Shown here: positions 27,694-62,421 of the stretch, piece by piece | Layout: every line of letters starts with the position of its first letter | Numbering within the stretch: position 1 is the first letter of the stretch | From: Coriobacteriia bacterium | Lineage (GTDB): Bacteria; Actinomycetota; Coriobacteriia; Anaerosomatales; SLCP01 | Assembly: GCA_019429145.1 (NCBI GenBank) | Contig: JAHYJI010000002.1 | Coordinates: forward strand, 19,336 to 83,335 | Direction: 5' to 3' | DNA: 64,000 nucleotides | Notes under the pieces: model-generated | What the model saw: the letters and a program-made list of their open reading frames with translations, nothing else | Told to the model about the DNA's origin: nothing | The model's database searches: none | Position numbers and translations under genes: made by a program

Positions 27694-27712
27694 CGAAACC
27701 AGGGAGGACACG

Positions 27713-28051: not shown

Positions 28052-28067
28052 GAGCGCTGCGCCGGCA

Positions 28068-28688
28068 TCAGCCGGCGTCGGGATCGGGATGTGCGGTTCC
28101 GAGCGAGGAGCCGTGCGGCATCCCCGAGCAGTCGCGCCGGTAGCGCGGATCGGGCGGCAGATCGCCGAGCGGGTTATCGAGCACGTGGCGCACGAGGGTC
28201 ACCCCGTTGTGCTCGACCTCGGTCTCGCGCCGCATTCCCACCTTGCGCGCGACCGCGAGCGATGCGGCGTTCTCCGGATGCACCATGCTGATCAGGCGCG
28301 CGAAACCGATGACGGCGAAGCAGTGGTTGATTCCGGCCCGCGCCGCTTCCGTGGCCAACCCCCGGCTCCACAGATCGGGGTGGAGCCACCACCCGAACTC
28401 GATCTCCGGCGCGAAGGTGCATCCCGGACCGGCGAACCCCACGACGCCGACCGGCTCACCTGCGGCAGGTTCGCGCAGCTGGAGCGCCCACCGACACCAG
28501 CCTGCACGCGCGGCGGTGACGATCTGGCGCTCGAGGAACGAGCCGATCTGCTCGTCGGTGGCCGCCCGGCCTCCGTTGATGTACCGCGTGACGCGCGGGT
28601 CTCGTGCAAGCACGGCGAACGCATCGATGTCGGTAGGTGCCCACGTGCGCAGTGTGAGCCGTTCTGTCTGCACGACCGTCGTCGCCAT
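28068..28688 (-). CDS. GNAT family N-acetyltransferase (RimJ/RimL-like)
   Basis: TERLTLRTW...DIDAF...WWLHPDLWSRGLATEAARAGINHCF...VHPENAASLAVARKVGM. ATG at 28688 (MATTVVQ). The longer track ORF is an upstream extension. Confidence 0.85.
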   Translation of the reverse strand: MATTVVQTERLTLRTWAPTDIDAFAVLARDPRVTRYINGGRAATDEQIGSFLERQIVTAARAGWCRWALQLREPAAGEPVGVVGFAGPGCTFAPEIEFGWWLHPDLWSRGLATEAARAGINHCFAVIGFARLISMVHPENAASLAVARKVGMRRETEVEHNGVTLVRHVLDNPLGDLPPDPRYRRDCSGMPHGSSLGTAHPDPDAG

Positions 28689-28752
28689 TTCCCGCCTCCG
28701 TCCCGTCCACAGCGTAGCGCACCGCCGCCGACGAACAGGTAGAATCACGCTC

Positions 28753-30153: not shown

Positions 30154-32066
30154 GCGCGGTGGCCCCCTCGCTCGTGCTCGGTACCGCCGGCCACATCGAT
30201 CACGGCAAGTCCACGCTCGTCAAGGCGCTGACCGGCACCGATCCGGACCGCCTGGCCGAGGAGAAGGCACGCGGGATCACGATCGAGCTCGGCTTCGCGC
30301 AGCTCACGCTGCCCAGCGGCCGCACGATGGGCGTTGTCGACGTTCCGGGCCACGAGCGATTTGTCCGGCACATGGTCGCCGGTGCCACCGGCATCGACGC
30401 GGTCCTGCTGGTCGTTGCCGCCGACGACGGCATCATGCCCCAGACCCGCGAGCACCTCGCCATCATCGACCTGCTCGGGATCGAGCGCGGGGTCGTGGCG
30501 CTGACCAAGGCCGATCTGGCCGAGCCCGACTGGATCGATCTTGTGACCGAGGAGGTGCGTGAGCTCGTGGACACCACCTCGATTGCTGATGCACCGGTCG
30601 TTCCGGTCTCGGCCGCAACGGGCGCGGGCGTCCCCGAGTTGCTCGCCGCGCTGGATGCGGTTGCCGGCGAGGCCCCGTCGCGGCAGGCGGGCCTGCCCTT
30701 CCGCCTCCCGGTCGACCGCGTCTTCACCATCGCCGGTGCGGGCACGGTCATCACCGGAACGCTCTGGTCCGGACAGGTCTCTCGCGACGACCCGGTCGAG
30801 ATCATGCCGGAGGGCCGCGAGGCTCGCGTCCGCGGCGTCCAGGTCCACTCGGCGAGTGTGGAGAAGGCCGGCGCCGGTCAGCGCGTCGCGCTCAACATCG
30901 CCGGTGTGGACCGAGATGAGATATCGAGAGGTGATGTCATCGCGGCTCCCGGCACGCTCTCGGTCACCGACCGGTTCGACGCGCGCTTCACCTACCTCGG
31001 CGTGCCCGGCGAGGACAAGCCCTTCGAGAGCGACACGCGCGTGCACGTTCATCACGGCACCCGTGAGGTCCTCGGTCGGGTGTTGCTCATGGATGCAAGC
31101 GAGTTTGCGCGCGGTGAGTCGGGGTTGGCCCAGGTGCGGCTCGAGGAACCGCTCGTGCCGCGCTACGGCGACCGGTTCATCGTGCGCTCCTACTCGCCGG
31201 TCTACACCATCGGCGGCGGCATGGTGCTCGACGTCCTCCCGCCGCGGCGCACCACGTTGCGCGAGCACGAGCGCGCGTTGCTCGAGGCGCTTGTGGCCCA
31301 CGACCTCTCATCGGCCGCGACGGGGCTACTGGCGTCGCGGGCGCTACCGATGACCTCGGCCGAGGTGGCCGCAGCGATCGGCGTGCCGCGCGCAGGGGTT
31401 GCCGACGATCTCAACAAGGCCGATCTCGCGCGGCTCAAGGTCGGCGGCGAGACGGCGTTCATCACGCGCGGCGCACTGGAGGCGTTCGTCGTGATGATCG
31501 AGCGGGAGCTGCTGGCGTTTCACGAGGCCGACCCGAAGGCCACCGGCATGTCGACGGCCGCGCTGCGTGACCGGGTCGACCGCCGGCTGACAGCGAAGTC
31601 ATTCGACGCCGTGCTCGAGATCGCCGTGCAGCGCGGAGTCGCCGCGGTCGAGAAGGGTCAGGTCCGCCACCCGCAGGCTGCGGTCTCAGCGCTTGCCGAG
31701 CAGCAGGCTGCCGAGGCCGTGCTGCGCCCGCTGGTCGTCCGCGACGGGTTGGCCCCGAAGTCGGTGGCCGAGTGGTCCGCCGAGGCCGGAGTCGATGCGG
31801 CTGTCGCGCGCAAGGTACTTGCGCGCATGGCCTCCGCCGGAGAGGCGCTGCGGCTCGGGAGCGACATGCACTTCGATGCTGCGGCCGTCGACGCGGCGGG
31901 GGAGCGGATCTCAGCGTTCTTGCGGGAGCACGCCAGCGCGACCGCGGCCGAGCTCAGGGACGTGCTGGGCGTCACGCGCAAGTACGCTATCCCGCTGCTC
32001 GAGCACTTCGATGCGATCGGGCTCACGAAGCGCGACGGCGACACCCGTACTCTGCGCAGAGCGTGA
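30150..32066 (+). CDS. selB: selenocysteine-specific translation elongation factor
   Basis: GTPase motifs [20 protein letters not shown] and TKADL. EF-Tu-like domains II/III and C-terminal winged-helix repeats. 4-nt overlap with selA. Confidence 0.93.
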
Positions 32067-32082
32067 TCTCTGCCGGCCCGGT

Positions 32083-32111
32083 TTGACACCACCCCCCGTG
32101 GCCAGGACAAT
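32083..32111 (+). promoter_or_regulatory. candidate sigma-70-type promoter for selC
   Basis: TTGACA (32083-32088), a 17-nt spacer, GACAAT (32106-32111), then 7 nt to the first tRNA-Sec nucleotide at 32119. Confidence 0.45.
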
Positions 32112-32118
32112 CCTCCGC

Positions 32119-32215
32119 GGAGGCGGATGGGTCCTGGTGGGCTCCGCGGTCTTCAAAACCGTAGTGGGGCGTGAAGAGCGTCCCGGGTGTGTTCGATTCG
32201 CACGCGCCTCCGCCA
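32119..32215 (+). tRNA. selC: tRNA-Sec (anticodon UCA), encoded CCA
   Basis: Hand fold: acceptor GGAGGCG(G)/(G)CGCCTCC. 6-bp D stem GGGTCC/GGGCTC with the 4-nt loop TGGT. Anticodon stem GCGGT/ACCGT with loop CTTCAAA. Long extra arm GGGGCG...CGTCCC. T arm GTGTG-TTCGATT-CGCAC. Discriminator G plus CCA. It sits immediately after selB. Confidence 0.88.
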
Positions 32216-45978: not shown

Positions 45979-46407
45979 TCAGCCCCCTTCTGGGCCGGTG
46001 GTGGCGCACGCAGCGCAGAGCCCGTAGAGCGTGACCTGGTGGCTCGTGACAACGAAGCCCTCGTGAGCAGCATCGGAGGCGGGGGCCCCGAGGGGACACG
46101 GAGTATGTGCCACCGCGCCGCAGGCGGTGCAGACGAGGTGGTGGTGATGTTCCTCCACCGAGCAGCGCACGTAGAGCGCACTGCCGTCCCTGCTCCCGAC
46201 GCGCTCGAGCGCACCCGCGTCCTCCATTGAGGCCACGGCCCGGTACACGGTGGCGACACCGATTCCCGGCGAGTGCGCACGTGCTGCGGCTATCAGGTCG
46301 TCGACGGTGAACGCACGCATGAAGCCGTCCGCTGCGGCAGCAACCGAGCGGCGACGGTCGGTCACCCGGCCGCTTCCAAAATGAGAATCATTATCACAAG
46401 TAGACAT
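45979..46407 (-). CDS. Fur family transcriptional regulator
   Basis: RVTDRRRSVAAAA...FTVDDLI...IGVATVYRAVASMEDAGALERV winged helix, plus HHHHLVCTACG...C-x2-C metal sites. ATG 46407 is assumed; GTG 46365 is the alternative. It ends 7 nt upstream of cbiM. Confidence 0.8.
   Translation of the reverse strand: MSTCDNDSHFGSGRVTDRRRSVAAAADGFMRAFTVDDLIAAARAHSPGIGVATVYRAVASMEDAGALERVGSRDGSALYVRCSVEEHHHHLVCTACGAVAHTPCPLGAPASDAAHEGFVVTSHQVTLYGLCAACATTGPEGG
46378..46400. promoter_or_regulatory. Fur-box-like inverted repeat
   Basis: The minus strand reads CTTGTGATAATGATTCTCATTTT. The 19-mer GATAATGATTCTCATTTTG (46395..46377) matches the classical GATAATGATAATCATTATC at 15/19. It is an AT-rich island covering codons 5-11 of the ATG-started fur ORF. 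Confidence 0.5.
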
Positions 46408-46528
46408 GAGGAGATGGTACCACCGCGTAGCCCCGCGCAAACACGACTCGCCACACCGTCCAAACCGCCGTTCGGGTAGCATTACACTCGGCAGGGCGCA
46501 CAGCGCCGGATGCGACGGGAGGTCTGCG

Positions 46529-47419
46529 GTGAATCTCGCACAGCTCAGGGCGTTCGTGATGGTGGTGGAGCACGGCTCTTTCTCCGCCGCAGCGCGCGCG
46601 ATGGGCATCTCGCAGCCGGCCGTCACCATGCAGGTGCAGGGGCTCGAGGCCGACCTCGGCGTGACGCTTCTGGACCGTGCGTACCGCAAGATCGAGCTCA
46701 CGGAGTCCGGTGCGTCGCTGCTGCCACATGCACGCGCGGTGCTCAAGGAACTCGAGGCCGCGCGTGAGGACCTGGTCCGCATGGCCGATACCGTCACCGG
46801 CAGACTCTCCGTGGTGGCGAGCACCACACCGGGCCAGTACCTCCTGCCGAGGCTCCTCGGATCGTTCCTCCAGGAGAATCCCGAGGTGAGCATCTCGCTC
46901 GCGGTCACAGACACCGCCGGGGTCGCCGAGGCGGTCGCCGGGGGTCATGCCGACCTTGGCATGACGGGTGCGGTCGTCACGGGCGTCCGCGTCGATTTCG
47001 AGCCCGCAGGGACTGACGACATCGTCATGATATGTCCCCCCACGCACCGGTTCGCTGCCGCGAAGCAGGTGTCCCTCGAGGAAGCGGTCGCAGAGCCGTT
47101 CATCATGCGTGAGGATGGTTCTGGCACCCGCCAGGTCGCCGAGGACGCCCTGCGAGAGGTGGGTGTGGACCCGGCCGAGCTGCATGTGCTGACCGAACTG
47201 GGAACGAGCGAGGCGATAGTGAGCGCGGTCGAGGGCGAGATGGGCCTGGCCATGGTCAGCACATGGGTCGCCTGCAAGGCGCTCGAATTAGGGACGGTTG
47301 CAGCGGTGCCCGTGGCGGAGTTCCCCGTCTCGCGGCCGCTCTACGTGGTCACCCCTCGCACGACACTGACGCGGGCGGCCGATGCGTTCCTCGCGCACGT
47401 AAGGAAGCAACTCGGCTGA
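46529..47419 (+). CDS. LysR family transcriptional regulator
   Basis: VNLAQLRAFVMVVEHGSFSAAARAMGISQPAVTMQVQGLE HTH plus a LysR substrate-binding domain. GTG at 46529. Divergent from the fur-cbiMQO genes. Confidence 0.88.
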   Translation: MNLAQLRAFVMVVEHGSFSAAARAMGISQPAVTMQVQGLEADLGVTLLDRAYRKIELTESGASLLPHARAVLKELEAAREDLVRMADTVTGRLSVVASTTPGQYLLPRLLGSFLQENPEVSISLAVTDTAGVAEAVAGGHADLGMTGAVVTGVRVDFEPAGTDDIVMICPPTHRFAAAKQVSLEEAVAEPFIMREDGSGTRQVAEDALREVGVDPAELHVLTELGTSEAIVSAVEGEMGLAMVSTWVACKALELGTVAAVPVAEFPVSRPLYVVTPRTTLTRAADAFLAHVRKQLG

Positions 47420-47465: not shown

Positions 47466-48458
47466 TCAGACCGCAAGCCGGAGTTCGTCTCCCGTCGCCC
47501 CGGACTCGTAGCCCGGGATGCGCGAGACGGTGTGCCTGAATGTCTTGCTGTGGAGCCGTTCGATGAGCCGGACGGTCTCCTCGCGCTGGTAGACCTCGAC
47601 AGGCATCACGAGGTCGTAGCGTTCCCTGAACAGAGGCACGAATCCGAGCCCAAGCCGCTCGGCGGCGGCAGCAACTCCCACCGCCACATCGGCCGTTCCC
47701 CGCGCAACGGCCTCGGCCACGCCGGTGTGTGTGTCGTATGCGGTCTCATAACCGGGTACGGCCGAGGTATCGGCGCCCAGGTCGGCGAGGGCATGGTCGA
47801 TCCACAGTCGAGTGCCCGAGCCGCGGTTGCGATTCGCAAGGCGGAGCCTTCCCTCGGCCACGTCGGCGATCGACGAGATGCCGTGAGGATTGGCGGGCGG
47901 AACGATGAGCCCCTGCTCCCGGTGGGCGAGGGTAACCAGGATGACGTCCCGGTCGGGGAAGATGTGACGGGCGTAGGGCGCGTTGTACTCCCCGGTGTCG
48001 GAGTCGAGCAGATGGCACCCCGCGATATCGGCCAGACCCTGGCGCACGCCGATCAAGCTGTCGAGACTCCCGGCGACCATGGTCGCGAGCGGATGGGGAT
48101 CGTCAGGGTCATCCGCCAGGGCCTCGACCGCCATGTCGTGGCTCACCATGGCAATGAGTGGAGATTCCGGACCGGGCTCCGGGCGTACGACCAGCGAGAT
48201 CGAGAACGCCGCTGATGTCCCGGCATAGTACTTCTCTGTGAAGTTCCGCGTGGCGCGGACCTCAGTGAGCCTGACAAGCTTGGCCGCTTCGAGCGCCTTG
48301 ACGTGATGGCGCACCCACGCCGGGTGTTTGCCGAGTCGAGCGCCGAGCATGGTGAGCGTGTGAGGCTGCGCCAGCAGGATCCGGAGGATCTCGAAGCGGT
48401 GAGGTGCCGCTAGCACTCGGATCGCGTCGAGACGGCTGATGTCGTCAAGGTTGTGCAT
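47466..48458 (-). CDS. one-component regulator: ArsR-type wHTH fused to periplasmic-binding-protein-like (molybdate/tungstate-binding-like) domain
   Basis: N-terminus: RVLAAPHRFEILRILLAQPHTLTMLGARLGKHPAWVRHHVKALEAAKLV. C-terminus: DIAGCHLLD...LANRNRGSGTRLWID..., as I recall for COG1910-type PBP domains. Divergent from mop-tupABC. Confidence 0.7.
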   Translation of the reverse strand: MHNLDDISRLDAIRVLAAPHRFEILRILLAQPHTLTMLGARLGKHPAWVRHHVKALEAAKLVRLTEVRATRNFTEKYYAGTSAAFSISLVVRPEPGPESPLIAMVSHDMAVEALADDPDDPHPLATMVAGSLDSLIGVRQGLADIAGCHLLDSDTGEYNAPYARHIFPDRDVILVTLAHREQGLIVPPANPHGISSIADVAEGRLRLANRNRGSGTRLWIDHALADLGADTSAVPGYETAYDTHTGVAEAVARGTADVAVGVAAAAERLGLGFVPLFRERYDLVMPVEVYQREETVRLIERLHSKTFRHTVSRIPGYESGATGDELRLAV

Positions 48459-48512
48459 CGCACACCATTCTCGCGGCTCGGCTTGTGGCAGGGCATGCTA
48501 AACTTCCCTTTA

Positions 48513-48527
48513 GTATAACTGCTATAC
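48513..48527. promoter_or_regulatory. inverted repeat GTATA-N5-TATAC upstream of mop
   Basis: aGTATAactgcTATACg sits 18 nt upstream of the mop ATG, in the 86-nt divergent region shared with the HTH-PBP regulator. It is an AT-rich ModE-operator-like half-site arrangement. Confidence 0.4.
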
Positions 48528-48544
48528 GCCGAGGAGGTGCATTC

Positions 48545-48751
48545 ATGAAGATCAGCGCACGTAACCAGCTTCGCGGCACCGTCGTCTCCGTAAAGGAAGG
48601 CGCTGTCGAGGCGCAGGTTGTGCTCGACGTCGGCGGCCAGCACATCGTATCTGTAGTCACGGTTGACGCAGTCAAGGAACTCGGACTTTCCGAGGGCTCG
48701 CCGGCCGTTGCCGTCGTCAAGGCCGACAGCGTCATGCTCGCGGTCGACTAG
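48545..48751 (+). CDS. mop: molbindin (Mop/TOBE domain molybdate/tungstate-binding protein)
   Basis: 68 aa: MKISARNQLRGTVVSVKEGAVEAQVVLDVGG...VKADSVMLAV, a canonical mono-TOBE sequence. RBS gaggagg. Confidence 0.88.
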   Translation: MKISARNQLRGTVVSVKEGAVEAQVVLDVGGQHIVSVVTVDAVKELGLSEGSPAVAVVKADSVMLAVD

Positions 48752-48849
48752 ACCGCATGCGGCTGACTTCTGCACCGCCGGTGGCGCTGCGGTTGTTCAG
48801 TCGGGCGCTTTCGTTATGGTTCTCGGCAGGCCGCCATCTGCGCGGCGAC

Positions 48850-48955
48850 GTAGCTCCGAGTCCGGATTTCCTACGGCCCAGCCGAGCGGGCCACGGATCC
48901 CGGACCGACAGGGTGGGGACGGGAAACCTCCTCGCCTCCCGGTGGAAAGGAGACC
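48850..48955 (+). ncRNA. candidate Moco/Wco riboswitch (Moco RNA motif) in the tupA leader
   Basis: The 208-nt gap between mop and tupA contains gCUCCGAGUCC...(nested stems GUCCGG/CCGGAC and GGCCC/GGGCC)...CCUCCUCGCCUCCCGGUGGAAAGGAGA. The GGAG RBS lies inside the closing helix, 9 nt before the ATG. This matches my memory of the conserved CUCCGAGCC and GCCUCC...GGAAAGG blocks of RF01055. Confidence 0.6.
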
Positions 48956-48959
48956 CAAC

Positions 48960-49841
48960 ATGCTCGAACATCTTGTGTCGTCCGCGGTGTGGAAGCGGAC
49001 ACTGCTCCTGGCTCTCGCGGTAGTGATGGCGGTGTCGCTCGCTGCTTGCGGAGCAGCCGAAGAACCCGAGGAGATCGAGGAGCCGGTAGTCGAGGAGCCC
49101 GTCGAGGTCACGAGTGTCATCCTCGCCTCGACCACCTCGACGGAGGACTCCGGACTTTTCGGCGTTCTCGTACCTGCGTTCCAGGATGACTACCCGCAGT
49201 ACCGCATCGATGTGGTCGCGGTGGGCACGGGTCAGGCTCTCGAGATCGGTCGCAACAAGGACGCAGACGTACTCCTCGTGCATGCAAAGGCAGATGAGGA
49301 GCAGCTCGTGGCCGACGGCTACGGTATCGAACGCCGTGACGTCATGTACAACGACTTCGTTATCGTCGGGCCCGAGGCTGATCCTGCCGGCATCGCAGGC
49401 GGCGATGACGCGGCTGCGGCTCTGACTGCGATCTCCGAGGGGGGTCACACGTTCGTGTCCCGGGGCGACGATTCGGGGACTCACAAGAAGGAGCTCAGTC
49501 TGTGGAGCGCTGCGGGTATCGAGCCTGCTGGCGACTGGTATCTGTCAATCGGGCAGGGCATGGGCGACACGCTCAACATGGCCTCTGAGAGCGAGGCGTA
49601 CACCCTCGCTGACCGGGGCACCTATCTCGCCATGAAGGACCGGATCGATCTCGTGGTCGTTGTCGAAGGCGACGAAGCGCTCTTCAACCCGTATGGCGTC
49701 ATCGTCGTGACCGATGCGAACAACCTCGACGGCGCTCAGGCGTTCGCGGACTGGATCGTCTCGCCGGCGGGGCAGGATATCATTCGGGAGTTCGGCGTGG
49801 ACACCTACGGCGAACCATTGTTCGTCCCGAACGCAGACTAG
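48960..49841 (+). CDS. tupA: tungstate ABC transporter substrate-binding lipoprotein
   Basis: Lipobox SLAACG. TupA signature ASTTSTEDSGLFGVLVPAF, GTGQALEIGRNKDADVLLVHA and SRGDDSGTHKKE. Confidence 0.88.
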   Translation: MLEHLVSSAVWKRTLLLALAVVMAVSLAACGAAEEPEEIEEPVVEEPVEVTSVILASTTSTEDSGLFGVLVPAFQDDYPQYRIDVVAVGTGQALEIGRNKDADVLLVHAKADEEQLVADGYGIERRDVMYNDFVIVGPEADPAGIAGGDDAAAALTAISEGGHTFVSRGDDSGTHKKELSLWSAAGIEPAGDWYLSIGQGMGDTLNMASESEAYTLADRGTYLAMKDRIDLVVVVEGDEALFNPYGVIVVTDANNLDGAQAFADWIVSPAGQDIIREFGVDTYGEPLFVPNAD

Positions 49842-49853
49842 GCACTCCGAACC

Positions 49854-50558
49854 ATGGTATTCATCGAAGCGGTCGTCACAGCGGTGGCCTTGCTCCTGCA
49901 GGGTTCCGCGGAACTGTGGAATGTCATCGCGACCACATTCGAGGTTGCCATCACCTCCACGGTCGCCGGAGTCGTGCTCGGCGCCCCCATGGGATTCCTC
50001 ATGGGGGCGACCCGGTTCCGGGGCCGCAGGCTCGCGGTTGCTCTGATCAACACCGCCATGGCCATCCCGCCGGTGGTGATCGGTCTTGTCGTCATGATGA
50101 CGCTCTCACGTCAGGGTCCCTTGGGCTTCATGGGCCTTCTGTACTCCAAGGACGCCATGTCGATTGCCCAGACACTGATCTCCACGCCCATCATCGCCGG
50201 TCTCATCGCTGCGGCCGTGGCTTCCGTTCCGTACAAGCTGCGCCTGCAGGCCCGTTCTCTCGGCGCATCCAGGCTCCAGGAGGCCCTGCTCGCGCTGAGG
50301 GAGGCACGCCTGGGGGTGATCGCTGCGGTCGCGGCAGGTTTCGGCGCAGTCGTTCGAGGTGTCGGTGCAGTCATGATGGTCGGCGGCAACATCGAAGGAC
50401 AGACCAGAGTGCTCACGACCGCGATCGTCCAGGAGTCCCGAAAGGGTGAGTTCGGCCTCGCCCTCGCACTCGGCCTGATTCTCATGACGATCACCTTCGC
50501 GATGAACGGCTTCCTTACCTGGTATCAGCACTCGAACGAACGTTTCGACAGGAGCTGA
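49854..50558 (+). CDS. tupB: tungstate ABC transporter permease
   Basis: 234 aa MetI-like permease with an EAA-type loop (SLGASRLQEALLALREARLG). It lies between tupA and tupC. Confidence 0.85.
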   Translation: MVFIEAVVTAVALLLQGSAELWNVIATTFEVAITSTVAGVVLGAPMGFLMGATRFRGRRLAVALINTAMAIPPVVIGLVVMMTLSRQGPLGFMGLLYSKDAMSIAQTLISTPIIAGLIAAAVASVPYKLRLQARSLGASRLQEALLALREARLGVIAAVAAGFGAVVRGVGAVMMVGGNIEGQTRVLTTAIVQESRKGEFGLALALGLILMTITFAMNGFLTWYQHSNERFDRS

Positions 50559-50563
50559 CCGGA

Positions 50564-51664
50564 GTGATGAACGACACTCAGGCAGGCATGGCTCTGCGGT
50601 GCACGGGGATCCGCAAGTCCTACGACAAGCGCACCGTTGTTGATGTCGCCGAGTTGGACATCCCCGCAGGCGAGACCCTGGCCGTGCTCGGTCCGTCGGG
50701 ATCGGGCAAGTCGACGCTTCTTTCGATCCTCGGGCTGCTCGAGCCACCTGACGCAGGTGAGGTGTACCTGGACGGCAACAGGGTGACGCATCGCGACAAG
50801 ACAGCCCGCATGCACATGGCTGCCGCGTTCCAGAGCCCCTACCTTTTCAAGGGCACGGTCGCCGACAACGTGGCCTACGGTCTCAAGCTGCGCAGGATGC
50901 TCTCGGTCGACCGGAGAAGCGCCGTCGCCGACTCGCTCGAGCGAGTAGGTCTGGGTGGCTGGGAGAACCGATCGGCCCTCACGCTCTCGGGCGGCGAGGC
51001 GCAGCGCGTCGCTCTCGCTCGCGCCCTCGTACTCCGGCCGCGCGTTCTCTTGCTCGACGAACCCCTTTCATCCCTCGACCCCCTCATCAAGGGCCAACTC
51101 GCCCAGGACTTCGCCCGTATCATCAGAGAGCACTCGATGACGACGCTCTATGTCACGCACGACCAGAACGAGGCGATGGCGATAGCCGACCGCATGGTGA
51201 TCTTGCGGGACGGGGTCCCTGTCGCGTCCGGAACGGTAGACGAGGTCACCGGGTTGCCTCCGGACGCCTGGACCGCGAACTTCCTCGGAGCCGAGTCCCC
51301 GATGCAGGGTTCGGTGGTCTCGTCGGCAGACGGACTCATCGGTATCGACACAGGAGGATGTGTCGTCTACGCAGGAGGCTCGGAGGAGATCGGGTCTCGC
51401 CTGATCGTCGGTGTGCGTCCGGAGGATGTACTTCTCTTCGAGGGCGATGCTGATATCCCGATCACGACCGCACGCAACCGGTTCCTCGGCACCGTGGTCG
51501 ACGTCGAGCTATGGGGCGTCATGTACCACATGGTCATCGACATCTGCGGAAGCCGCTTGGCCTCGCGAGTCTCGCGCGCATCAGTCCGAGACATGGGTCT
51601 GGAGACGGGGTCAAAGGTCCGGGTCGTCTTCAAGGCCTCGGCTGTCCGGTACAAGCGCATCTAG
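50564..51664 (+). CDS. tupC: tungstate ABC transporter ATP-binding protein with C-terminal TOBE domain
   Basis: GPSGSGKSTLL, LSGGEAQRVALARAL, LLLDEPLSSLD. C-terminal TOBE: NRFLGTVVDVELWGVMYHMVIDI...KVRVVFKASAV. Confidence 0.88.
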   Translation: MMNDTQAGMALRCTGIRKSYDKRTVVDVAELDIPAGETLAVLGPSGSGKSTLLSILGLLEPPDAGEVYLDGNRVTHRDKTARMHMAAAFQSPYLFKGTVADNVAYGLKLRRMLSVDRRSAVADSLERVGLGGWENRSALTLSGGEAQRVALARALVLRPRVLLLDEPLSSLDPLIKGQLAQDFARIIREHSMTTLYVTHDQNEAMAIADRMVILRDGVPVASGTVDEVTGLPPDAWTANFLGAESPMQGSVVSSADGLIGIDTGGCVVYAGGSEEIGSRLIVGVRPEDVLLFEGDADIPITTARNRFLGTVVDVELWGVMYHMVIDICGSRLASRVSRASVRDMGLETGSKVRVVFKASAVRYKRI

Positions 51665-51755: not shown

Positions 51756-53177
51756 GTGGCTGAAGACAGGATTCCCTGTACCGCGGCGGTACTTGCCGGC
51801 GGACGCTCGATGCGGATGGGTGTCGACAAGACGCTGCTCGAGGTCGATGGCGTCCCGCTTGTTGCGCGCGTCGTCGAGTCTGTCACCCGAGTGTGCGCTC
51901 ACACGTTTGTCGTGACCAACCGGCCCGAGAGCCTCGATGGTATCGATCTTGCCGACGAGGTCACCGTGCTGACCGATGAGGTTCCGTACCAGGGGCCGCT
52001 CGGCGGACTGGTCACTGCGCTCAAGGAGGCACCGGACGAGTGGGTGCTGGCGGTGGCCGCCGACATGCCGTACCTCTCCGCGGCGGTTGTCCAAGCGCTG
52101 TGGGACGCGCGAGGCGGCGCGGATGCCGTTATGCCCGTGACCCCGGAGGGTCCCGAGCCGCTGCTCGCGCTCTACTCGCGGGCGTGCCTTCCTGCCGCCC
52201 GCCGCGTGTTGGCAACCGGCCGGCGACGCTTGGTGGCGATCTTCTCCGAGATCAACGCGGTCGAGGTGCCGATCGAGTCGCTGCGCTCGGTCGACCCCGA
52301 GCTGCGCAGCTTCCTCAACGTGAACACGCCCGAGGAGCTCGCCGAGGCGCGCGAGGAGACCGTGGCGCTTTCCGTCGAGCGCGATGCCACCGAGCGCGTG
52401 AGTGTCTCGGTCATCGAGGTCGGGACACGCCGTTCGCGTGGCATGCCCTCCGAACATCCCGTGACGGTCCACATGAACGATGTGGAGGTAGCCACCATCC
52501 AGGCCACACCAGAGGACCTCGAAGAGATGGCTGCGGGCTTTCTCGTCGCCGAGGGCCTTATGGTCAACCGGGACGACCTTGTCTCCATCGACGTCGATTA
52601 CAAGCGCGGACTCGTCTACGTCTCGACGCTCGAAGAGGTTCCCGACGACATGGTCTACAAGACACGCTACGTCACGAGCGGATGCGGCAAAGGGATCACC
52701 TTCTCCTCGGTGGGCCACGCGCGCGGTCTCGACCACATCGAGACGCACCTGCGCCTCGACAGTCAGGTCGTCTACGACCTCATGGGCCAGATGGCCCGGG
52801 CCGCTACGGCATACCGGGACACCGGTGGCATGCACGCGTGCGGCCTGGCACGTGACGGTGAGCTTCTCTTCGTGCGGGAGGACGTCGGGAGGCACAACGC
52901 GCTGGACAAACTGCTCGGGCGTGCCTGGCTCGATCGCGTGCCCACTCGCGACGCCATCCTGCTCTCGACCGGCCGCATCTCCTACGAGATGGCCGTCAAG
53001 GCTGCCAAGGCAGGCGTGCCGGTCGTAGTCTCCCGCACCGCTGTGACCGATCTCGCCGCAGAGATAGCCGGCGAGCTCGGCATCACGCTTGCAGGCTATG
53101 CGCGCGGCGGCAAGATAACCGTCTACACCCATCCCGAACGCATCACGAGCCACACGACCGATGAGGATGACGAATGA
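51756..53177 (+). CDS. mobA/fdhD: fusion protein: molybdenum cofactor guanylyltransferase MobA + sulfurtransferase FdhD
   Basis: N-terminal ~200 aa: AAVLAGGRSMRMGVDKTLLEVDG...YQGPLGG...AADMPYL (MobA). C-terminal ~260 aa: VTSGCGKG...GGMHACGL...EDVGRHNALDKLLG...SGRISYEMAVKAAKAGVPVVVSRTAVT (FdhD). One uninterrupted ORF. Confidence 0.85.
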   Translation: MAEDRIPCTAAVLAGGRSMRMGVDKTLLEVDGVPLVARVVESVTRVCAHTFVVTNRPESLDGIDLADEVTVLTDEVPYQGPLGGLVTALKEAPDEWVLAVAADMPYLSAAVVQALWDARGGADAVMPVTPEGPEPLLALYSRACLPAARRVLATGRRRLVAIFSEINAVEVPIESLRSVDPELRSFLNVNTPEELAEAREETVALSVERDATERVSVSVIEVGTRRSRGMPSEHPVTVHMNDVEVATIQATPEDLEEMAAGFLVAEGLMVNRDDLVSIDVDYKRGLVYVSTLEEVPDDMVYKTRYVTSGCGKGITFSSVGHARGLDHIETHLRLDSQVVYDLMGQMARAATAYRDTGGMHACGLARDGELLFVREDVGRHNALDKLLGRAWLDRVPTRDAILLSTGRISYEMAVKAAKAGVPVVVSRTAVTDLAAEIAGELGITLAGYARGGKITVYTHPERITSHTTDEDDE

Positions 53178-54421
53178 CGATATCCGTGGAACAAGCCCGC
53201 GACCTGGTCCTGGCGCGCTGCGGGGTTCTCGAGACCGAGGACGTGCCGCTGCTCGAATCGCTCGGGCGCGTGCTGGCGGCCGACGCGCGCTCCGACATCG
53301 ACGTCGCGCCCTTCGACAACTCGGCGATGGACGGCTACGCGGTGCGTGCGACCGATCTCGCGGGTGCCTCGCAAGACTCGCCGGCGACGCTCGCGGTCAT
53401 CTCCCACATCGCCGCCGGCGACTACTCCGAGATCGAGGTCGGACCCGGCCAGGCAGCGCGCATCATGACAGGCGCCCCGGTCCCTCCAGGCGCCGATGCG
53501 GTCGTGATGGTGGAGTACACCGAGGCGGGCGAGGTTTCAGGCTCGACCGGTGGCACCGTGCACGTCATGCGCGAGGTCCGCGAGGGCGAGAACATCCGCC
53601 GGCGCGCGGAGGAGGTCTCGGCGGGTGACGTCGTGCTGGAGGCAGGCGAGGTCATCGGGCCCGCGGCCGTCGGACTGCTCGCATCTACCGGACACGCCAC
53701 CGCCACGGTCTACCGCCGTCCGCGTGTGGCGGTGATCTCGACCGGCGACGAGCTCGTCGAGGTCGCCGAGAAGCCGGGCCCGGGCAAGATCCGCAACTCC
53801 AACTCCTACTCGATCGCCGCCCAGGTGATCGCTGCCGGCGCGATCCCGCTGCGCTACCCGATCCTGCGCGACGACCCCGACGCGACCCGCGAGGCGTTCA
53901 CCCGCGCGGCCGCCGAGGCCGACTTCATCGTCACGAGCGGCGGGGTAAGCGTCGGGGACTTCGACTACGTCAAGCCGGTGCTCGAGGAGCTCGGCGAGAT
54001 GGAGTTCTGCAAGGTTGCCATGCGCCCCGGTAACCCCCAGACGCTCGGCTCTATCTCGGGCGTGCCCTTCTTCGGCCTGCCGGGCAACCCGACCTCGACC
54101 TTCGTCGGCTTCGAGATCTTCGTGCGCCCGTCGTTGCGTTACATGCAGGGCCACACGAAGCTCGATCGTCCGCGCCAGGCCGCCACGCTTGCCCACGACG
54201 TCAAGAAGAAGCAGGACCGCCGCTACTTCTTGCGGGCTCGTCTCGATCGACGCGATGACGGGGCGCTCTCGGTCGCACTCTCCGGGAGCCAGTCCTCGGC
54301 CCTGCTCACCGCGGCACATCGCGGCAACTGTCTTCTCGTCCTGCCGGAAGGGGAGGGTTTCTTCTCCGAGGGCAGCACGGTGGAGGTCATCCGACTCGAC
54401 ATGGAGGAAGGGATCGCATGA
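53174..54421 (+). CDS. moeA: molybdopterin molybdotransferase
   Basis: FDNSAMDGYAV, RIMTGAPVP, STGDELV, KIRNSNS, SGGVSVGDFDY and the GNP...F pattern. 4-nt overlap with the upstream gene. Confidence 0.92.
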   Translation: MTISVEQARDLVLARCGVLETEDVPLLESLGRVLAADARSDIDVAPFDNSAMDGYAVRATDLAGASQDSPATLAVISHIAAGDYSEIEVGPGQAARIMTGAPVPPGADAVVMVEYTEAGEVSGSTGGTVHVMREVREGENIRRRAEEVSAGDVVLEAGEVIGPAAVGLLASTGHATATVYRRPRVAVISTGDELVEVAEKPGPGKIRNSNSYSIAAQVIAAGAIPLRYPILRDDPDATREAFTRAAAEADFIVTSGGVSVGDFDYVKPVLEELGEMEFCKVAMRPGNPQTLGSISGVPFFGLPGNPTSTFVGFEIFVRPSLRYMQGHTKLDRPRQAATLAHDVKKKQDRRYFLRARLDRRDDGALSVALSGSQSSALLTAAHRGNCLLVLPEGEGFFSEGSTVEVIRLDMEEGIA

Positions 54422-54633
54422 GCGACACACCCAAGGTTATCGATCCGCGCTGGCTCGATCAGGTCACGCCCGAGCTCGTCGATGCCGTCCGCGCCAAGGC
54501 GCACGATGGTAAGGTGACCTGTCCGGTGCTGCGCAAGCTCGCCGAGGACACCGGCATCCCGTACAAGGTGGCAGGTGCGGCGGCCGATTCGGTCGGCATC
54601 AAAGTCCACAACTGCGATCTCGGCTGCTTCTAG
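54418..54633 (+). CDS. small conserved-looking Cys protein of unknown function inside the cofactor operon
   Basis: 71 aa: MSDTPKVIDPRWLDQVTPELVDAVRAKAHDGKVTCPVLRKLAEDTGIPYKVAGAAADSVGIKVHNCDLGCF. Its ATGA overlaps the moeA stop. Three Cys (C35, C66, C70). Confidence 0.55.
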   Translation: MSDTPKVIDPRWLDQVTPELVDAVRAKAHDGKVTCPVLRKLAEDTGIPYKVAGAAADSVGIKVHNCDLGCF

Positions 54634-54682
54634 GGCCGATAGGATGGGCGCGGCCGGTACCGCGCCAGGAGGCTCACGACAG

Positions 54683-55207
54683 ATGACAGACTTTCGTATC
54701 CCGGTCGTGTCCGTGGTGGGCAAGGGCAAGTCGGGCCGCACGACCCTGCTCGAGGGCGTCATCACGACGCTCACCGGACGGGGCTACCGTGTGGCCACGG
54801 CCAAGCACCACTTCCACGAGACCGACATCGACACGCCCGGCAAGGACTCGTGGCGCCACTGGAACGCCGGCGCTGTGGTCACGATGGTGAGCGCTCCCGA
54901 CCGGCTCGGCGTCTTTCGCCGGGTCGAGCAGGAGCGCACGCTCGTCGAGCTCGCCGGGGAGGCGGGCGATGTCGACATCATGCTGACCGAGGGCTTCCGG
55001 CGGACCTCGCCGGTGCTTGTGGAGGTTGTGCGCGAGGAGCGCTCCACCGAGCCGATCTGCGCTCCCGAGGAGCTCTTTGCGCTCGTGACCGACGTGGAGG
55101 AGTTGCGTGGGCTGCCCGTGCCCACGTTTGCGCTTGATGATGCAGCGGGGCTCGCGACCCTCATCGAGGAACGCTTTCTCGGCGAAGCGAGGGGCGGTGA
55201 TGCGTGA
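54683..55207 (+). CDS. mobB: molybdopterin-guanine dinucleotide biosynthesis adapter protein MobB
   Basis: P-loop VVSVVGKGKSGRTTLL, then RGYRVATAKHH...DTPGKDS. RBS ccaggagg, ATG at 54683. Confidence 0.88.
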   Translation: MTDFRIPVVSVVGKGKSGRTTLLEGVITTLTGRGYRVATAKHHFHETDIDTPGKDSWRHWNAGAVVTMVSAPDRLGVFRRVEQERTLVELAGEAGDVDIMLTEGFRRTSPVLVEVVREERSTEPICAPEELFALVTDVEELRGLPVPTFALDDAAGLATLIEERFLGEARGGDA

Positions 55208-56226
55208 TGGCAACCGACTCGTACGGCCGGCGCATCGACTACCTGCGCATCAGCCTCACCGACCGGTGTAACCTGCGGTGCGTTTACTGCATGCCCGCCA
55301 AGGGCGTGCCGTGGAAGCCGCACGATGAGATCCTCACCCTTGAGGAGATCGAGCGGTTTGCGGCAGCTGCAGTGGGTGAGGGTATCTCGAAGATCCGCCT
55401 CACCGGTGGCGAGCCGCTGGTGCGCAAAGGGGTCGTCGGGCACGTCCGGCGACTCAAGGAGCTCACGGGGCTTGAGGCGATCGCGCTTACCACCAATGGC
55501 ACGCTGCTCGCGCGCTACGCGGCACCGCTGGTCGAGGCTGGCCTCACTCGCGTCAACATCTCCATCGACTCGCTCGATCCAGCCGTTTTCGAGCGCGTGA
55601 CCCGTGGCGGCAAGCTCACCGACGCGCTCGCGGGGCTCCACGCCGCGTTCGAGGCGGGTATGGGGCCGATCAAGGTGAACGCCGTTGTCGTGCGCAGTCT
55701 CGAGCAGGACCTCCTCGGCTTCGCTCGGATGACGCTCGATCGGCCCGTGCACGTGCGGTTCATCGAGTACATGCCCGTAGGTGGTGTGGGAGGGGGGGAG
55801 TGCGAGCCGGCGAGCGAGGGCTGGACGCAGGCCGACCACGTGCCCGCCGACGAGATACTCGAGCGTCTGGCTGCCGAGGGGATCGCCGCGGGCATCGGAG
55901 CACCCGAACCCGTGCAGCGTGCCGAGGCACCGGGTGGCTGGGGGCCGGCCCGCTACTACCGCTATCCGGGCGCAGAGGGCACGGTCGGCGTGATCACCCC
56001 GCTCTCTCACCACTTCTGTGGCGAGTGCAACCGTTTGCGCCTGACTGCAGACGGCCGTCTGCGCGCCTGCCTCTTCTCCGACGACGAGATCGACGTGCGC
56101 ACGGTACTGCGCGAGGGCACCGACGCCGATGTGCGCGAGGTCATCCGGATGGCGCTCGCCACCAAGCCCGAGAGCCACAGCATGCGCGTGGGAACCACGC
56201 GCGGCATGTCCCAGATAGGGGGCTGA
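55204..56226 (+). CDS. moaA: GTP 3',8-cyclase (radical SAM)
   Basis: [19 protein letters not shown] radical-SAM cluster motif, GGEPLVR, and the C-terminal second cluster [18 protein letters not shown]. Confidence 0.95.
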
Positions 56227-56231
56227 GCGGC

Positions 56232-56768
56232 ATGGCCGAACCCACGCATTCCGCCGCGGGGCGCCACGAGCGCCTCACCCACCTCGACGAGCGTGGCGAG
56301 GCCCGCATGGTCGACGTGGGCGAGAAGCCCGACACCCGTCGGCGTGCCGTCGCCTCCGCGATCATCACGATGCGTCCGGAGACGCTCGCGATGATCGTCG
56401 AGGGCAGGGCGCCCAAGGGCGACGTCTTCGCCACCGCGCGCATCGCGGGCATCATGGCCGCCAAACGAACGAGCGACCTCGTCCCCATGTGTCACCCGCT
56501 CGCGCTCACGCACGCGAGTGTCGAGCTCGAGCCCGAACCCGCCCCCGCGGACATAGTGGGCAGTGCCGCGGTGCGCATCACCGCGACGTGCGAGACCACC
56601 GGTCCCACCGGCGTGGAGATGGAGGCGCTCACGGCGGCGGCGGTGGCGGGTCTGACCCTGTACGATATGTGCAAGGCGGTCGACCGGGGCATGGTCCTCG
56701 ACGACGTCATGCTGCTCGAGAAGGATGGCGGCGCATCAGGTCGCTGGACCCGTAAGGAGGACGAATGA
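56232..56768 (+). CDS. moaC: cyclic pyranopterin monophosphate synthase
   Basis: [59 protein letters not shown]. Confidence 0.93.
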
Positions 56769-57259
56769 GCGGCGATTCCATGACACTTCCCACGCCCGGC
56801 CGGGTGGTCTCGGTGAACCTCTCCGAGAAGAAGACCGTCCGCAAGACCCCCGGTCAGAGTGGCACGCTCGTCTACGACCGCGGGTTTGAGGGCGACGCGC
56901 ACGCGGGCGACTGGCACCGCCAGGTGAGCCTGCTCGCTCAGGAGTCCATCGACTCGATGGTAGCCAAGGGGCTCGATGTCGGCGCGGGCGACTTCGCCGA
57001 GAACATAACCACCGAGGGCATCGATCTACCGGCCCTGCCCGTGGGCACGGTGCTCAAGGTCGGCGAGGACGCCGTGCTCGAGGTGAGTCAGATCGGCAAG
57101 GTGTGTCACACCAAGTGTGCCATCTACTACCAGGCCGGCGACTGCGTCATGCCCCGCGAGGGCATCTTCGTGGTCGTGCGCGAGCCCGGTGACGTCGCGG
57201 TGGGCGACACCGTCGAGGTCGTCTCGCTCGGCGACGGCACCTGCGACAGGGTTGAGTGA
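56765..57259 (+). CDS. MOSC domain-containing protein
   Basis: [17 protein letters not shown]...[17 protein letters not shown]...[11 protein letters not shown] beta-barrel MOSC pattern. 4-nt overlap with moaC. Confidence 0.85.
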
Positions 57260-59368: not shown

Positions 59369-60235
59369 GTGACAGGGAGCAGGGGGGTGTCGGCGATAGT
59401 AAGCCTGACCCAGTTGAACATCTGGCTGGACGTCGCGTTCACCAGCCTCTACGCGGTCGTTCTGGTCGCCCTCGTCATACACTTCCTCGGCAGCATCCCC
59501 AAGGGGCGATTCCGCAAGAAGTTCATCCTCAAGAAGTGGCCGGAGCACGATCACGCTCCGGGGACCCAGCCCAAGCTCCTGCACCACACACATATGCTGA
59601 TGATGATCGTCCTCGCGATCTCGGGCCTCTACATCAGGTTCCCGTTCTTCGATGGCGGCCGCACGGCGATGCGCTACATCCACTACTTCGCCATGATCGT
59701 CGTCACGATCAACCTCATCTGGCGGCTGTGGTACGCGTTCTTCTCCAAGCAGCGCGACTGGAGGGAGTTCGCGATCACCAAGGATGACGCCAAGTCCGCT
59801 CTCGGCGTCATCCTCTACTACTCCTACATCAGCAACAGCAAGCCGCACACGTCGTCGAAGTACAACGTCATGCAGAAGTTCAGCTACCAGTTCTTCCTCG
59901 TGCTGATGCTGATGCAGGTGTATACCGGCTTCGCGTTAGTGTTCACGCCCATATTCTGGGGCTACAGTCCCCGTGACATCCTCGTGGGCTGGTGGCTCGG
60001 GGTATTCGTCGGCTCGACCGACCTTGCCGGATGGTATGCGCGCACGGCCCACTACGTGATCAACTGGCTCTTCATCATCATGACCACCGTCCACGTCTAC
60101 CTGTCCGCGACCGAGGACGTCCCGGTCACGCTCGACTTCTTCTTCGTCAAGGACCTGGAGATCAAGGGCGGCCACGGTCATGCACCGGAGCCGCACGCGG
60201 TCCCGGCCGCGGGGACGACGGCGGGTGATCAGTGA
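59369..60235 (+). CDS. membrane b-type cytochrome (Ni/Fe-hydrogenase / FdnI / PhsC-type cytochrome b family)
   Basis: 4-5 TM helices with conserved His (VIHFLG, LLHHTHMLMMIV, MRYIHYFAMIV, TAHYVINWLFIIMTTVHVY) and KYNVMQKFSY. The start may be GTG at 59387. The stop overlaps the next gene's start. Confidence 0.75.
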   Translation: MTGSRGVSAIVSLTQLNIWLDVAFTSLYAVVLVALVIHFLGSIPKGRFRKKFILKKWPEHDHAPGTQPKLLHHTHMLMMIVLAISGLYIRFPFFDGGRTAMRYIHYFAMIVVTINLIWRLWYAFFSKQRDWREFAITKDDAKSALGVILYYSYISNSKPHTSSKYNVMQKFSYQFFLVLMLMQVYTGFALVFTPIFWGYSPRDILVGWWLGVFVGSTDLAGWYARTAHYVINWLFIIMTTVHVYLSATEDVPVTLDFFFVKDLEIKGGHGHAPEPHAVPAAGTTAGDQ

Positions 60236-61119
60236 TGCGAGCCGGCACTTTGACCAAACTGGCTCTGCTGGCGCTGGCCCTCTCTGTGACGATGATCCCT
60301 GCGGCAGCTCTTGCCCAGGAGGCACCGGTGGCCACCACGAGCGCTGACGTCATCGGCTACGACGTCGACTTCACCCTGCCCACCGCCGCCAAGGCGGGAT
60401 GTCTGGTGTGTCACGGCGACGAGAACCTGATCCGTCTGCGCGAGGACGAGATCGTGAGCTTCTTCGTCGATCCCGCCGAGCTCGAAGCGGGCCCGCACGC
60501 GACGGTTCAGTGCGCCGGCTGCCACCTCGACTTCGCCTTCACCCTGCCTCACGTGCAGGAGACCGAGGATTGGCAGCGCACCGCCAAGTCCGCGTGCAAG
60601 AACTGCCACCAGGACCAGTACGTGGAGTACGGCCAGGGCGCTCACCGTATCGAGGTCGGCAACGGTGCGTCCGCCGATGCTGACGAGAAGCCGCTGTGCG
60701 GCGATTGCCACGGTGCGCACGACATGGTGGCGCTCGTGGATAGTCCCGAGGGCCAGGCGGCTATGCGGGACAACGCCTGGGAGGTCTGCGGCCGCTGTCA
60801 CGAGGACTACTGGGAGAACTACAACGACTACTACCACGGCCGCCCCTTCAAGCGCGGCGGTGCGTATGACGCGCCATCGTGCTGGGACTGCCACGGTTAC
60901 CACGACATCAGGCCGTCGAGCGACCGTCGTTCGACGGTGCACGAGAGCCGGCTTGCAGAGACGTGCACCAGCAACCCGGCCTGTCATCATGACGTGAATG
61001 TTGACTACCTGACCTACGCGGAGATGATCCACGGGCACGGTGAGCTGCTGGAGCAAAATCCCCTCTTTGACCTCCTGAGCAGGATACGGTCGGCGATCTC
61101 CGGCTTGTTCGGTGGCTAG
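60232..61119 (+). CDS. secreted multihaem c-type cytochrome, 6 CXXCH + 1 CX5CH
   Basis: Signal peptide LALLALALSVTMIPAAALAQEA. Motifs: CLVCH, CAGCH, CKNCH, CGDCH, CGRCH, CWDCH, plus CTSNPACH. Confidence 0.88.
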   Translation: MMRAGTLTKLALLALALSVTMIPAAALAQEAPVATTSADVIGYDVDFTLPTAAKAGCLVCHGDENLIRLREDEIVSFFVDPAELEAGPHATVQCAGCHLDFAFTLPHVQETEDWQRTAKSACKNCHQDQYVEYGQGAHRIEVGNGASADADEKPLCGDCHGAHDMVALVDSPEGQAAMRDNAWEVCGRCHEDYWENYNDYYHGRPFKRGGAYDAPSCWDCHGYHDIRPSSDRRSTVHESRLAETCTSNPACHHDVNVDYLTYAEMIHGHGELLEQNPLFDLLSRIRSAISGLFGG

Positions 61120-61173
61120 GCGAGACCTCCTCAGAGGACGCGCGCCACGCGAGACTCGGAAGGGCAGGCGGCG

Positions 61174-62421
61174 ATGATCCATCTCACGAGAGGTCGGGCG
61201 GTCCATCTCCTGTTGGCGACCGTGTGTGCGGCAGTGCTGCTGCTCGGAGTTGTGACGCTCGCAGTCGCACAGGATGACGGAGTCCTGATCATCGACACCG
61301 GTGCACCCGTCTACGCCAGTACCTGCAAGGTGTGTCACGGGGTGATAGCCGAGGGGCGCAACCCGCAGGTCGAGTTCAGTCACGCTACCCACATGGTCTA
61401 CGCATGCAGCAGCTGCCACGGCGTGTTCCCCCACACGCCGGCCGGAACCCTGACCCCCACGATGAAGAGCTGCTGGAACTGCCACGGGCTGCGCCACGGC
61501 CCGATGGGGATCATCGCAGGCTACGAGTGCGAGCAGTGCCACGGCAACTACGCCGGGCGGATGCGTCCCGACTTCCACGGTCGTGACTGGGCCGAGGAGC
61601 CTCACGTCCAGCCGGGCATCGACGAGCTGCGAACCACGTGCATGATGTGCCACACGAAGGCCGACTGCGACTCCTGTCACCAGGAGGTCGGAGTGACCTG
61701 GCGCACGGCCGTGCCGTTCACCTACGACGCCGAGAACGGGTGCCTTGCCTGCCACGGCTACGAGAACCTCACGAAGGTCTCCGAGGACGGGCTGAAGTCC
61801 TACTACGTCACGGGGATCGATCAGAGTGCCCACCGCGACATCACCTGTACGCAGTGTCACCCCGACTTCGACTACACCGATGACGCGCCCGCGACACCCC
61901 TCTGGCGCATCAATGCCGGCCTTGCATGCCAGGAGTGCCACGACCACCAGGATGTGACCGAGGTCTACGCCGAGTCACTTCACGGCCGGCTCATCGCCGA
62001 TGGTGAGTACTCCTCGGCGACGTGCGCGTCCTGTCACGGTGGTCACGACATCGCTCGCCTCGACACCGAGGCGGCTCGACGTGCACTCCACCTGAGCGGC
62101 GAGCAGATGTGTGCCGAGTGTCATCGCGAGGCGTTCGACAGCTACGATGACTATTATCACGGCGCCCCGTACAAGCGCGGCGCCGTAGACGCACCGTCTT
62201 GTTGGGACTGCCACGGCGCCCACGAGGTGCTTGCGGTAGCCGACCCCGCATCGCTCATGTATTCGACCAATGCGGTCGAGACGTGCGGCCAGGACGGCTG
62301 CCACTACGGCTCGAGCGCGTCGTTCATCGAGCACACGTCCTACCTCATCCACGGCCGGAGCGAGTCCGTCTCCGCCAATCCGATCATCCGCTGGTGGCGT
62401 TCGCTGAGGGGTCAGGGGTAG
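61174..62421 (+). CDS. membrane-anchored/secreted multihaem c-type cytochrome, 12 CXXCH + 1 CX4CH
   Basis: N-terminal hydrophobic anchor LLLATVCAAVLLLGVVTLAVA. Motifs: CKVCH, CSSCH, CWNCH, CEQCH, CMMCH, CDSCH, CLACH, CTQCH, CQECH, CASCH, CAECH, CWDCH, plus CGQDGCH. Confidence 0.88.
   Translation: MIHLTRGRAVHLLLATVCAAVLLLGVVTLAVAQDDGVLIIDTGAPVYASTCKVCHGVIAEGRNPQVEFSHATHMVYACSSCHGVFPHTPAGTLTPTMKSCWNCHGLRHGPMGIIAGYECEQCHGNYAGRMRPDFHGRDWAEEPHVQPGIDELRTTCMMCHTKADCDSCHQEVGVTWRTAVPFTYDAENGCLACHGYENLTKVSEDGLKSYYVTGIDQSAHRDITCTQCHPDFDYTDDAPATPLWRINAGLACQECHDHQDVTEVYAESLHGRLIADGEYSSATCASCHGGHDIARLDTEAARRALHLSGEQMCAECHREAFDSYDDYYHGAPYKRGAVDAPSCWDCHGAHEVLAVADPASLMYSTNAVETCGQDGCHYGSSASFIEHTSYLIHGRSESVSANPIIRWWRSLRGQG
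61324..61680 (+). repeat. hexahaem module copy 1 (119 aa, protein-level repeat)
   Basis: Residues 51-169 of the 415-aa cytochrome: CKVCH...FSHATH..CSSCH..FPH...PTMKSCWNCHGLRHG...CEQCH...WAEEPH...CMMCH-x4-CDSCH. Confidence 0.6.

Follow-up and report, generated by a model that had tools for sequence, protein, structure and literature searches.

A P3-less RF01055 RNA precedes tupABC in a high-GC actinobacterium and most likely acts as a translational OFF switch for tupA

Introduction

What controls a set of tungstate transport genes that is set apart from its upstream neighbour by a long stretch of non-coding DNA? In the window (throughout this text, the whole stretch of 64,000 nucleotides from a Coriobacteriia bacterium that was analysed), a gap of 208 nt (48752-48959) separates the end of the mop stop codon (48751) from the tupA ATG at 48960. 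The original prediction gave the gap this same length and placed in it a candidate riboswitch of the Moco type, sensing molybdenum or tungsten cofactor (Wco, also Tuco) and controlling the translation of tupA.

Cofactor-dependent control by an RNA of this family has been shown genetically, for Escherichia coli moaA only; direct ligand binding could not be shown, the cofactors being unstable (PMC2408646). In the same survey, 58 of 176 Moco RNAs were without P3, and these showed a near-perfect correspondence with organisms or genes of the tungsten cofactor. The assignment of P3-less RNAs to Wco is repeated in a 2023 review (PMC10265488). Here we describe the RNA in the mop-tupA gap, its relatives before other tupA genes, and the readings of its mechanism, its ligand and its transcript.

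Results

Genes around the mop-tupA gap

Domain, NCBIfam and structure matches gave the following genes next to the gap:

46406-47419, LysR-type regulator (domain match)
47466-48458, minus strand, regulator with ArsR-HTH and PBP_like (PF12727) domains (domain matches)
48545-48751, plus strand, mop, upstream of the gap, encoding a 68-aa TOBE/molybdenum-pterin-binding protein (TOBE E 1.6e-18; TIGR00638 80 bits, cut-off 55)
48960-49841, plus strand, tupA, encoding the tungstate-binding lipoprotein of an ABC transporter, with lipobox LAAC (PBP_like_2; TupA model; PDB 3LR1)
49854-50558, plus strand, tupB, permease (TupB model 156.8 bits, below the equivalog cut-off)
50564-51664, plus strand, tupC, ATPase with a C-terminal TOBE domain (domain and NCBIfam matches)

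The three tup genes are separated by 12 nt (tupA-tupB) and 5 nt (tupB-tupC). TupA was the best NCBIfam match of the tupA product, with 199.8 bits (short of the 400 bits of the equivalog cut-off) versus 21.2 bits for ModA, and the best match among solved structures was the tungstate-binding protein PDB 3LR1 (E 1.4e-72). Judged from these matches, the specificity of the transporter for tungstate over molybdate is not certain. The reading frame of tupA can be extended to a TTG at 48663, which would make the RNA region coding. We rejected this start: the extension overlaps with mop, alignments with homologues begin at residues 2-12 when translation is taken from ATG 48960, and this ATG has a Shine-Dalgarno sequence before it and a lipoprotein signal peptide after it.

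After tupC, a same-strand run at 51756-57259 comprises a mobA-fdhD fusion, moeA, mobB, moaA and a MOSC-domain gene. The start of moeA overlaps the stop of mobA-fdhD, and moaA overlaps as well. No convincing terminator or promoter was found in the intergenic gaps from tupC to moaA, and this run may form one long unit with tupABC. Three weak terminator-like matches between tupC and moaA were all located inside coding sequence, their number being that expected by chance.

In other genomes (loci L001, L004 and L005), a homologue of the LysR-type gene directly precedes the RNA on the same strand. In the window, the position of the ArsR-HTH/PBP_like regulator and mop between the LysR gene and the RNA suggests an insertion of genes for sensing or storage of molybdenum or tungsten.

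Further away, a selenocysteine cluster at 26743-32211 contains a selD-like gene (AIRS domains), selA, selB and tRNA-Sec (72.1 bits). The combination of this cluster and fdhD suggests that a pterin-dependent formate dehydrogenase with selenocysteine is encoded elsewhere in the genome. At 59369-62421, a gene for a cytochrome b561-type membrane protein is followed by two for multihaem cytochrome c3/c7-type proteins, which suggests an anaerobic respiratory lifestyle of this high-GC organism. No molybdenum or tungsten enzyme (AOR or the catalytic subunit of FDH) was found among the 38 ORFs scanned in the window.

The gap contains a full-length RF01055 element without P3

The whole window was scanned with Rfam 15, and the one riboswitch match was RF01055 (Moco RNA motif; molybdenum/tungsten riboswitch aptamer), where the original prediction had put it. 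Its 53.6 bits exceed the gathering score of 36; a score under that threshold had been named at the outset as evidence against the riboswitch. The E-value of 4.9e-10 refers to 64 kb, both strands and 4227 families. Model positions 1-135 were all spanned without truncation, and our own covariance model of the P3-less form (R1) scored the element higher still. No second copy of RF01055 was found in the window, even at E <= 1. On the minus strand, a match to DUF3800-XI (48921-48957) had 23.3 bits where the gathering score is 37.8 (E 0.53) and was put down to chance. The parts of the element, all on the plus strand, are as follows:

48842-48968, plus strand, full RF01055 match, comprising aptamer, ribosome-binding site and start codon (53.6 bits; R1 80.6 bits)
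48854-48857, plus strand, 5' strand of P1, CUCC (pairs with the GGAG columns in 19-22 of 22 sequences of the MAFFT alignment)
48860-48905, plus strand, P2, with outer helix GUCCGG/CCGGAC, distal helix GGCCC/GGGCC and an internal-loop tetraloop receptor (Rfam alignment, covariation)
48906-48910, plus strand, P2-to-P4 joiner CGACA, 5 nt, where P3 would be (model P3 positions, about 59-73, almost all deleted)
48911-48937, plus strand, P4 hairpin with a GAAA tetraloop at 48923-48926 (7 of 10 pairs with compensatory changes)
48938-48945, plus strand, P5 mini-hairpin CC-CGGU-GG (within the conserved GCCUCCC...UGGAAAGGAG core)
48949-48952, plus strand, 3' strand of P1, GGAG, identical with the tupA Shine-Dalgarno sequence, 7 nt 5' of the ATG (sequence, Rfam alignment)

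The sequence features from which the riboswitch had been proposed were located at defined positions. The string gCUCCGAGUCC occupies 48853-48863, and the two nested helices are real, GUCCGG (48860-48865) facing CCGGAC (48900-48905) and GGCCC (48875-48879) facing GGGCC (48888-48892). Within P2, the tetraloop receptor consists of CCUACG (48870-48875) with CACGG (48892-48896). The pyrimidine-rich stretch CCUCCUCGCCUCCCGGUGGAAAGGAGA, at 48927-48953, ends in GGAAAGGAGA. The distance from there to the ATG had been given as 9 nt and has to be corrected to 6 nt, a spacer of CCCAAC following GGAGA.

Every conserved core nucleotide of the RF01055 family is found in the window RNA, and all testable defining features of the family and of its P3-less subclass are present. 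The conserved junction and P5 core (CCGAG; GCCUCCC-loop-GGAAAGGAG) is complete, and it is among the invariant or near-invariant columns of alignment A1. The presence or absence of P3, a point raised together with the score, was settled by the 5-nt CGACA joiner: it leaves no space for a hairpin, and P3 is therefore absent from the window copy.

Could the resemblance be a relic or a product of chance, with the gap just housing a promoter or terminator for mop and tupA? The folding energy of the window RNA as a single sequence is no better than that of shuffles (z = -0.10), and the GC-rich hairpin at 48770-48792 is a possible mop terminator. The z-score is usual at 68% G+C, where thermodynamic modelling is noisy, and it is neither support nor objection. 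Against this reading stand the E-value over the full model and the occurrence of the same RNA, at the same position, in orthologues with 59-81% RNA identity and compensatory changes. The RF01055 match, the covariation described below and the complete set of conserved core nucleotides effectively refute it, and we regard it as scarcely credible.

Helices covary among tup-linked copies

Relatives of the window TupA were sought with one genome per species, and 80 loci were returned. The nearest TupA in reference genomes, from an actinobacterial MAG, is 74% identical. A P3-less RNA lies just upstream in about 25 of the 80 TupA loci from other genomes; Rfam places RF01055 directly before tupA in 15 of the 20 leading loci and in a few of the following 20. 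The gene order RNA-tupA-tupB-tupC-mobA-fdhD is kept in L001, L003, L004 and L005.

Twenty-two tup-linked copies were aligned with MAFFT, independently of the Rfam model, and the alignment was folded with RNAalifold. P1, P2 (outer and distal helices), P4 with its GAAA loop, and P5 were recovered. Compensatory changes were present in 21 of the 30 pairs, including 9 of the 10 outer P2 pairs and both pairs of the distal helix. Lack of helix covariation in orthologous leaders had been named at the outset as evidence that would tell against the riboswitch, and covariation was found. The paired cells amounted to 91.7% in the 22 copies, versus 33.7-51.2% when the 3' partners were slid by 1-3 columns, and none of 500 shuffles matched the observed value on any measure. 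The actinobacterial subset (8 copies, 59-81% identical to the window RNA) behaved similarly, with 92.1% of cells paired versus 32-54% after sliding; within this subset alone, 14 of 30 pairs were compensatory. The three inner column pairs of P1, the helix that encloses the multistem junction, are kept in 20-22 of the 22 aligned copies.

A covariance model trained on the 22 copies gave 33 matches across the window and the 80 loci, and it recovered tup-adjacent copies in six loci outside the training set (L047, L051, L053, L066, L067 and L076). The joiner from P2 to P4 measures 4-5 nt in all matches of the P3-less model's alignment, and in nearly all matches of that model the GAAA loop occurs together with a CCUA-type receptor. 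The receptor variant of the window, CCUACG/CACGG, recurs in high-GC relatives (L001, L002, L005, L006 and others).

Several copies differ in loop or arrangement. Three copies have GCGA loops without the receptor, echoing the correlation between GCAA loops and a missing receptor in PMC2408646; copies of this kind, weaker and P3-less, lie away from tupA at L067:5344-5455, L067:2446-2557 (minus strand) and L051:5364-5475. Tandem P3-less aptamers stand before tupA at L007:2647-2965, L020:2528-2846 and L027:2531-2837 (a Clostridiaceae genome and two Desulforudis MAGs), and in L020 and L027 the first aptamer of the tandem is followed by a terminator-like hairpin of its own. Tandem Moco RNAs have been known since 2008 (PMC2408646). 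In L006:5753-6229, from another member of the Coriobacteriia, a second P3-less copy (6101-6229) lies downstream of tupC and adjoins a minus-strand mop homologue whose product is 66% identical to the window Mop.

The Shine-Dalgarno sequence of tupA lies within P1

As had been predicted, CUCC at 48854-48857 is able to pair with GGAG at 48949-48952 of the ribosome-binding site. Both the window copy and those of L001-L006 leave 4-7 nt between the 5-nt 3' strand of P1 (GGAGA, GGGGA or similar) and the start codon, and they have no U-run. Among the Firmicutes copies, most carry a hairpin and a U-run (an intrinsic terminator) after the aptamer, 38-340 nt before the start codon. A consensus scan of 48300-49100 found neither a terminator nor a sigma-70 promoter. 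Since GGAG is the sole Shine-Dalgarno-like element and no terminator was found, translational control of tupA is the natural reading, in support of the mode of action first proposed.

In partition-function folds of the window RNA without ligand, P1 had a probability of 0.07-0.26 and was a minority state; it contributed -4.8 kcal/mol to the consensus fold. In these models, such weakness would be what is expected of a short helix that needs stabilisation by a ligand.

The same aptamer could alternatively work on transcription, with the ligand causing transcripts to end early, either through Rho acting on the untranslated leader and tupA or at an intrinsic terminator, so that all genes from tupABC to moaA would be turned off. 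The intrinsic terminators of most Firmicutes copies are a precedent, the gaps from tupC to moaA have no convincing terminator or promoter of their own, and riboswitch-Rho interplay has been proposed as possible at the moa operon of Mycobacterium tuberculosis (PMC13650167). In the window, however, there is no hairpin with a U-run between the aptamer and the ATG, the P1 strand is just 6 nt away from the start codon, and a Shine-Dalgarno sequence within P1 is a hallmark of translational control. Rho, moreover, would be an addition to ribosome-binding-site sequestration and not a substitute for it. We consider a transcriptional output improbable; the element is most likely a translational OFF switch for tupA.

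The proposed switch would operate in the following steps. P2 and P4 are predicted to fold and to dock through contact of the GAAA tetraloop with the receptor. At high levels of metal-pterin cofactor, the cofactor would occupy the junction and stabilise the short P1 (CUCC/GGAG). With P1 closed, the Shine-Dalgarno sequence of tupA would be hidden and translation initiation blocked, and tungstate uptake would fall, giving negative feedback. When the cofactor is scarce, P1 would open and tupA would be translated, with tupB and tupC probably following through coupling. The sign of regulation is taken by analogy from E. coli moaA (PMC2408646). Which cofactor is bound, the coupling of tupB and tupC to tupA, and any polar (Rho-dependent) effect on the downstream cofactor genes are likewise inferred.

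P3 status and the ligand

The association of P3-less variants with the tungsten cofactor, as stated in the original prediction, agrees with PMC2408646, in which it is a correlation. By this correlation, Wco is probably the specific effector of the window RNA.

Alternatively, the switch may be the same and its effector not specifically Wco: Moco, metal-free molybdopterin or either metal form could be bound, and absence of P3 would then not encode tungsten specificity. P3 status and tup linkage are indeed not strictly tied. The Rfam model finds P3 in two tup-linked copies from Anaerolineae MAGs, one before tupA (L036:1144-1303) and one before tupB-tupC-tupA (L032:1174-1319). These two are exceptions to the published rule linking P3 to molybdenum genes, and the rule is not absolute. 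The downstream run also contains genes common to both cofactors (moaA, moeA, mobA and mobB), the window TupA scores under its equivalog cut-off, and the assignment of Wco to the class rests on correlation. On the other side, nearly all tup-linked copies found here are without P3, the 2008 survey had matched P3-less RNAs and tungsten near-perfectly, and the P3-containing RNA of E. coli is unaffected by tungstate (PMC2408646). The preference of TupA for the TupA model over ModA and its best structural match, a tungstate-binding protein, also speak for a tungsten form. An effector other than Wco is unlikely in our estimation, and we keep Wco as the probable ligand.

Start of the transcript

The 90 nt from mop to the aptamer contain the GC-rich hairpin at 48770-48792, followed by UUGUUCAGU; it is a candidate mop terminator that fails the scan rules. 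A candidate -10 hexamer picked by hand, TATGGT at 48815-48820, fails them too. Operator-type inverted repeats were sought in 48440-48860, and the sole match was inside the mop coding region. Upstream of mop, an inverted repeat GTATA-N5-TATAC (48513-48527) overlaps a TATAAC hexamer 18-32 nt 5' of the mop ATG. Lying in the divergent region shared with the ArsR-HTH/PBP_like gene, it could be an operator or a -10 element.

Because neither a consensus promoter nor a terminator that passes the rules was found in the 90 nt upstream of the aptamer, a further reading stands: the riboswitch may be inside a polycistronic mRNA of mop-tupABC, perhaps extending through moaA, that is made from the mop promoter under a metal-sensing transcription factor. 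We put this forward tentatively, as a possibility that is somewhat doubtful. If true, the cofactor-sensing RNA would let Mop, which binds oxyanions, be made independently of uptake and cofactor synthesis, and with the nearby LysR-type and ArsR-HTH/PBP_like regulators there would be three layers of control (oxyanion, cofactor and storage).

Discussion

The leader of tupABC in this actinobacterium contains a P3-less member of RF01055, of the subclass proposed to sense the tungsten cofactor, the assignment to Wco being one by correlation. Family membership, absence of P3, covarying helices and overlap of the Shine-Dalgarno sequence with P1 are established for this element.

The window RNA shares with the P3-less RNAs of PMC2408646 the full-length match, P1, P2, P4 and P5, the GAAA loop with its CCUA receptor, the lack of P3, the conserved CUCCGAG and GCCUCCC...UGGAAAGGAG core, and the location before genes for tungstate transport and pterin cofactors. 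There is no structural difference from them; the window receptor CCUACG/CACGG is a variant of the 11-nt CCUAAG/UAUGG receptor, and the window host differs in being a high-GC actinobacterium. P3-less copies before tupABC, expression platforms of the translational and the terminator type, tandems and occurrence in Actinobacteria have all been published already (PMC2408646), and the element is not of a new kind.

Eubacterium limosum has five P3-less RF01055 elements, with Tuco riboswitches before tupABC, wor1, fetABC and focA (PMC11725836, 2024). As in the window, the copy before its tupABC is directly upstream and translational control is proposed (PMC11725836). For that copy a separate hairpin sequestering the ribosome-binding site and an anti-sequestor were proposed, whereas in the window P1 itself contains the Shine-Dalgarno sequence, as in E. 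limosum fetABC2 and E. coli moaA. In E. coli moaA the ribosome-binding site likewise lies in the 3' strand of P1, and the RNA works as a translational OFF switch dependent on synthesis of the cofactor; for the window, this behaviour is predicted. P3 is present in the E. coli RNA, which responds to Moco and not to tungstate and controls biosynthesis, whereas the window RNA is P3-less and precedes a transporter.

Many equivalent examples are already in Rfam. The window element is a compact one, with P1 serving as the Shine-Dalgarno sequence, no terminator and no P3, and it could suit reporter or structural work on discrimination between tungsten and molybdenum. For the organism, an uncultured high-GC actinobacterium, tungstate uptake is probably under feedback from a pterin-cofactor riboswitch. 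The riboswitch marks it as a likely tungsten user, which fits the neighbouring selenocysteine machinery and fdhD.
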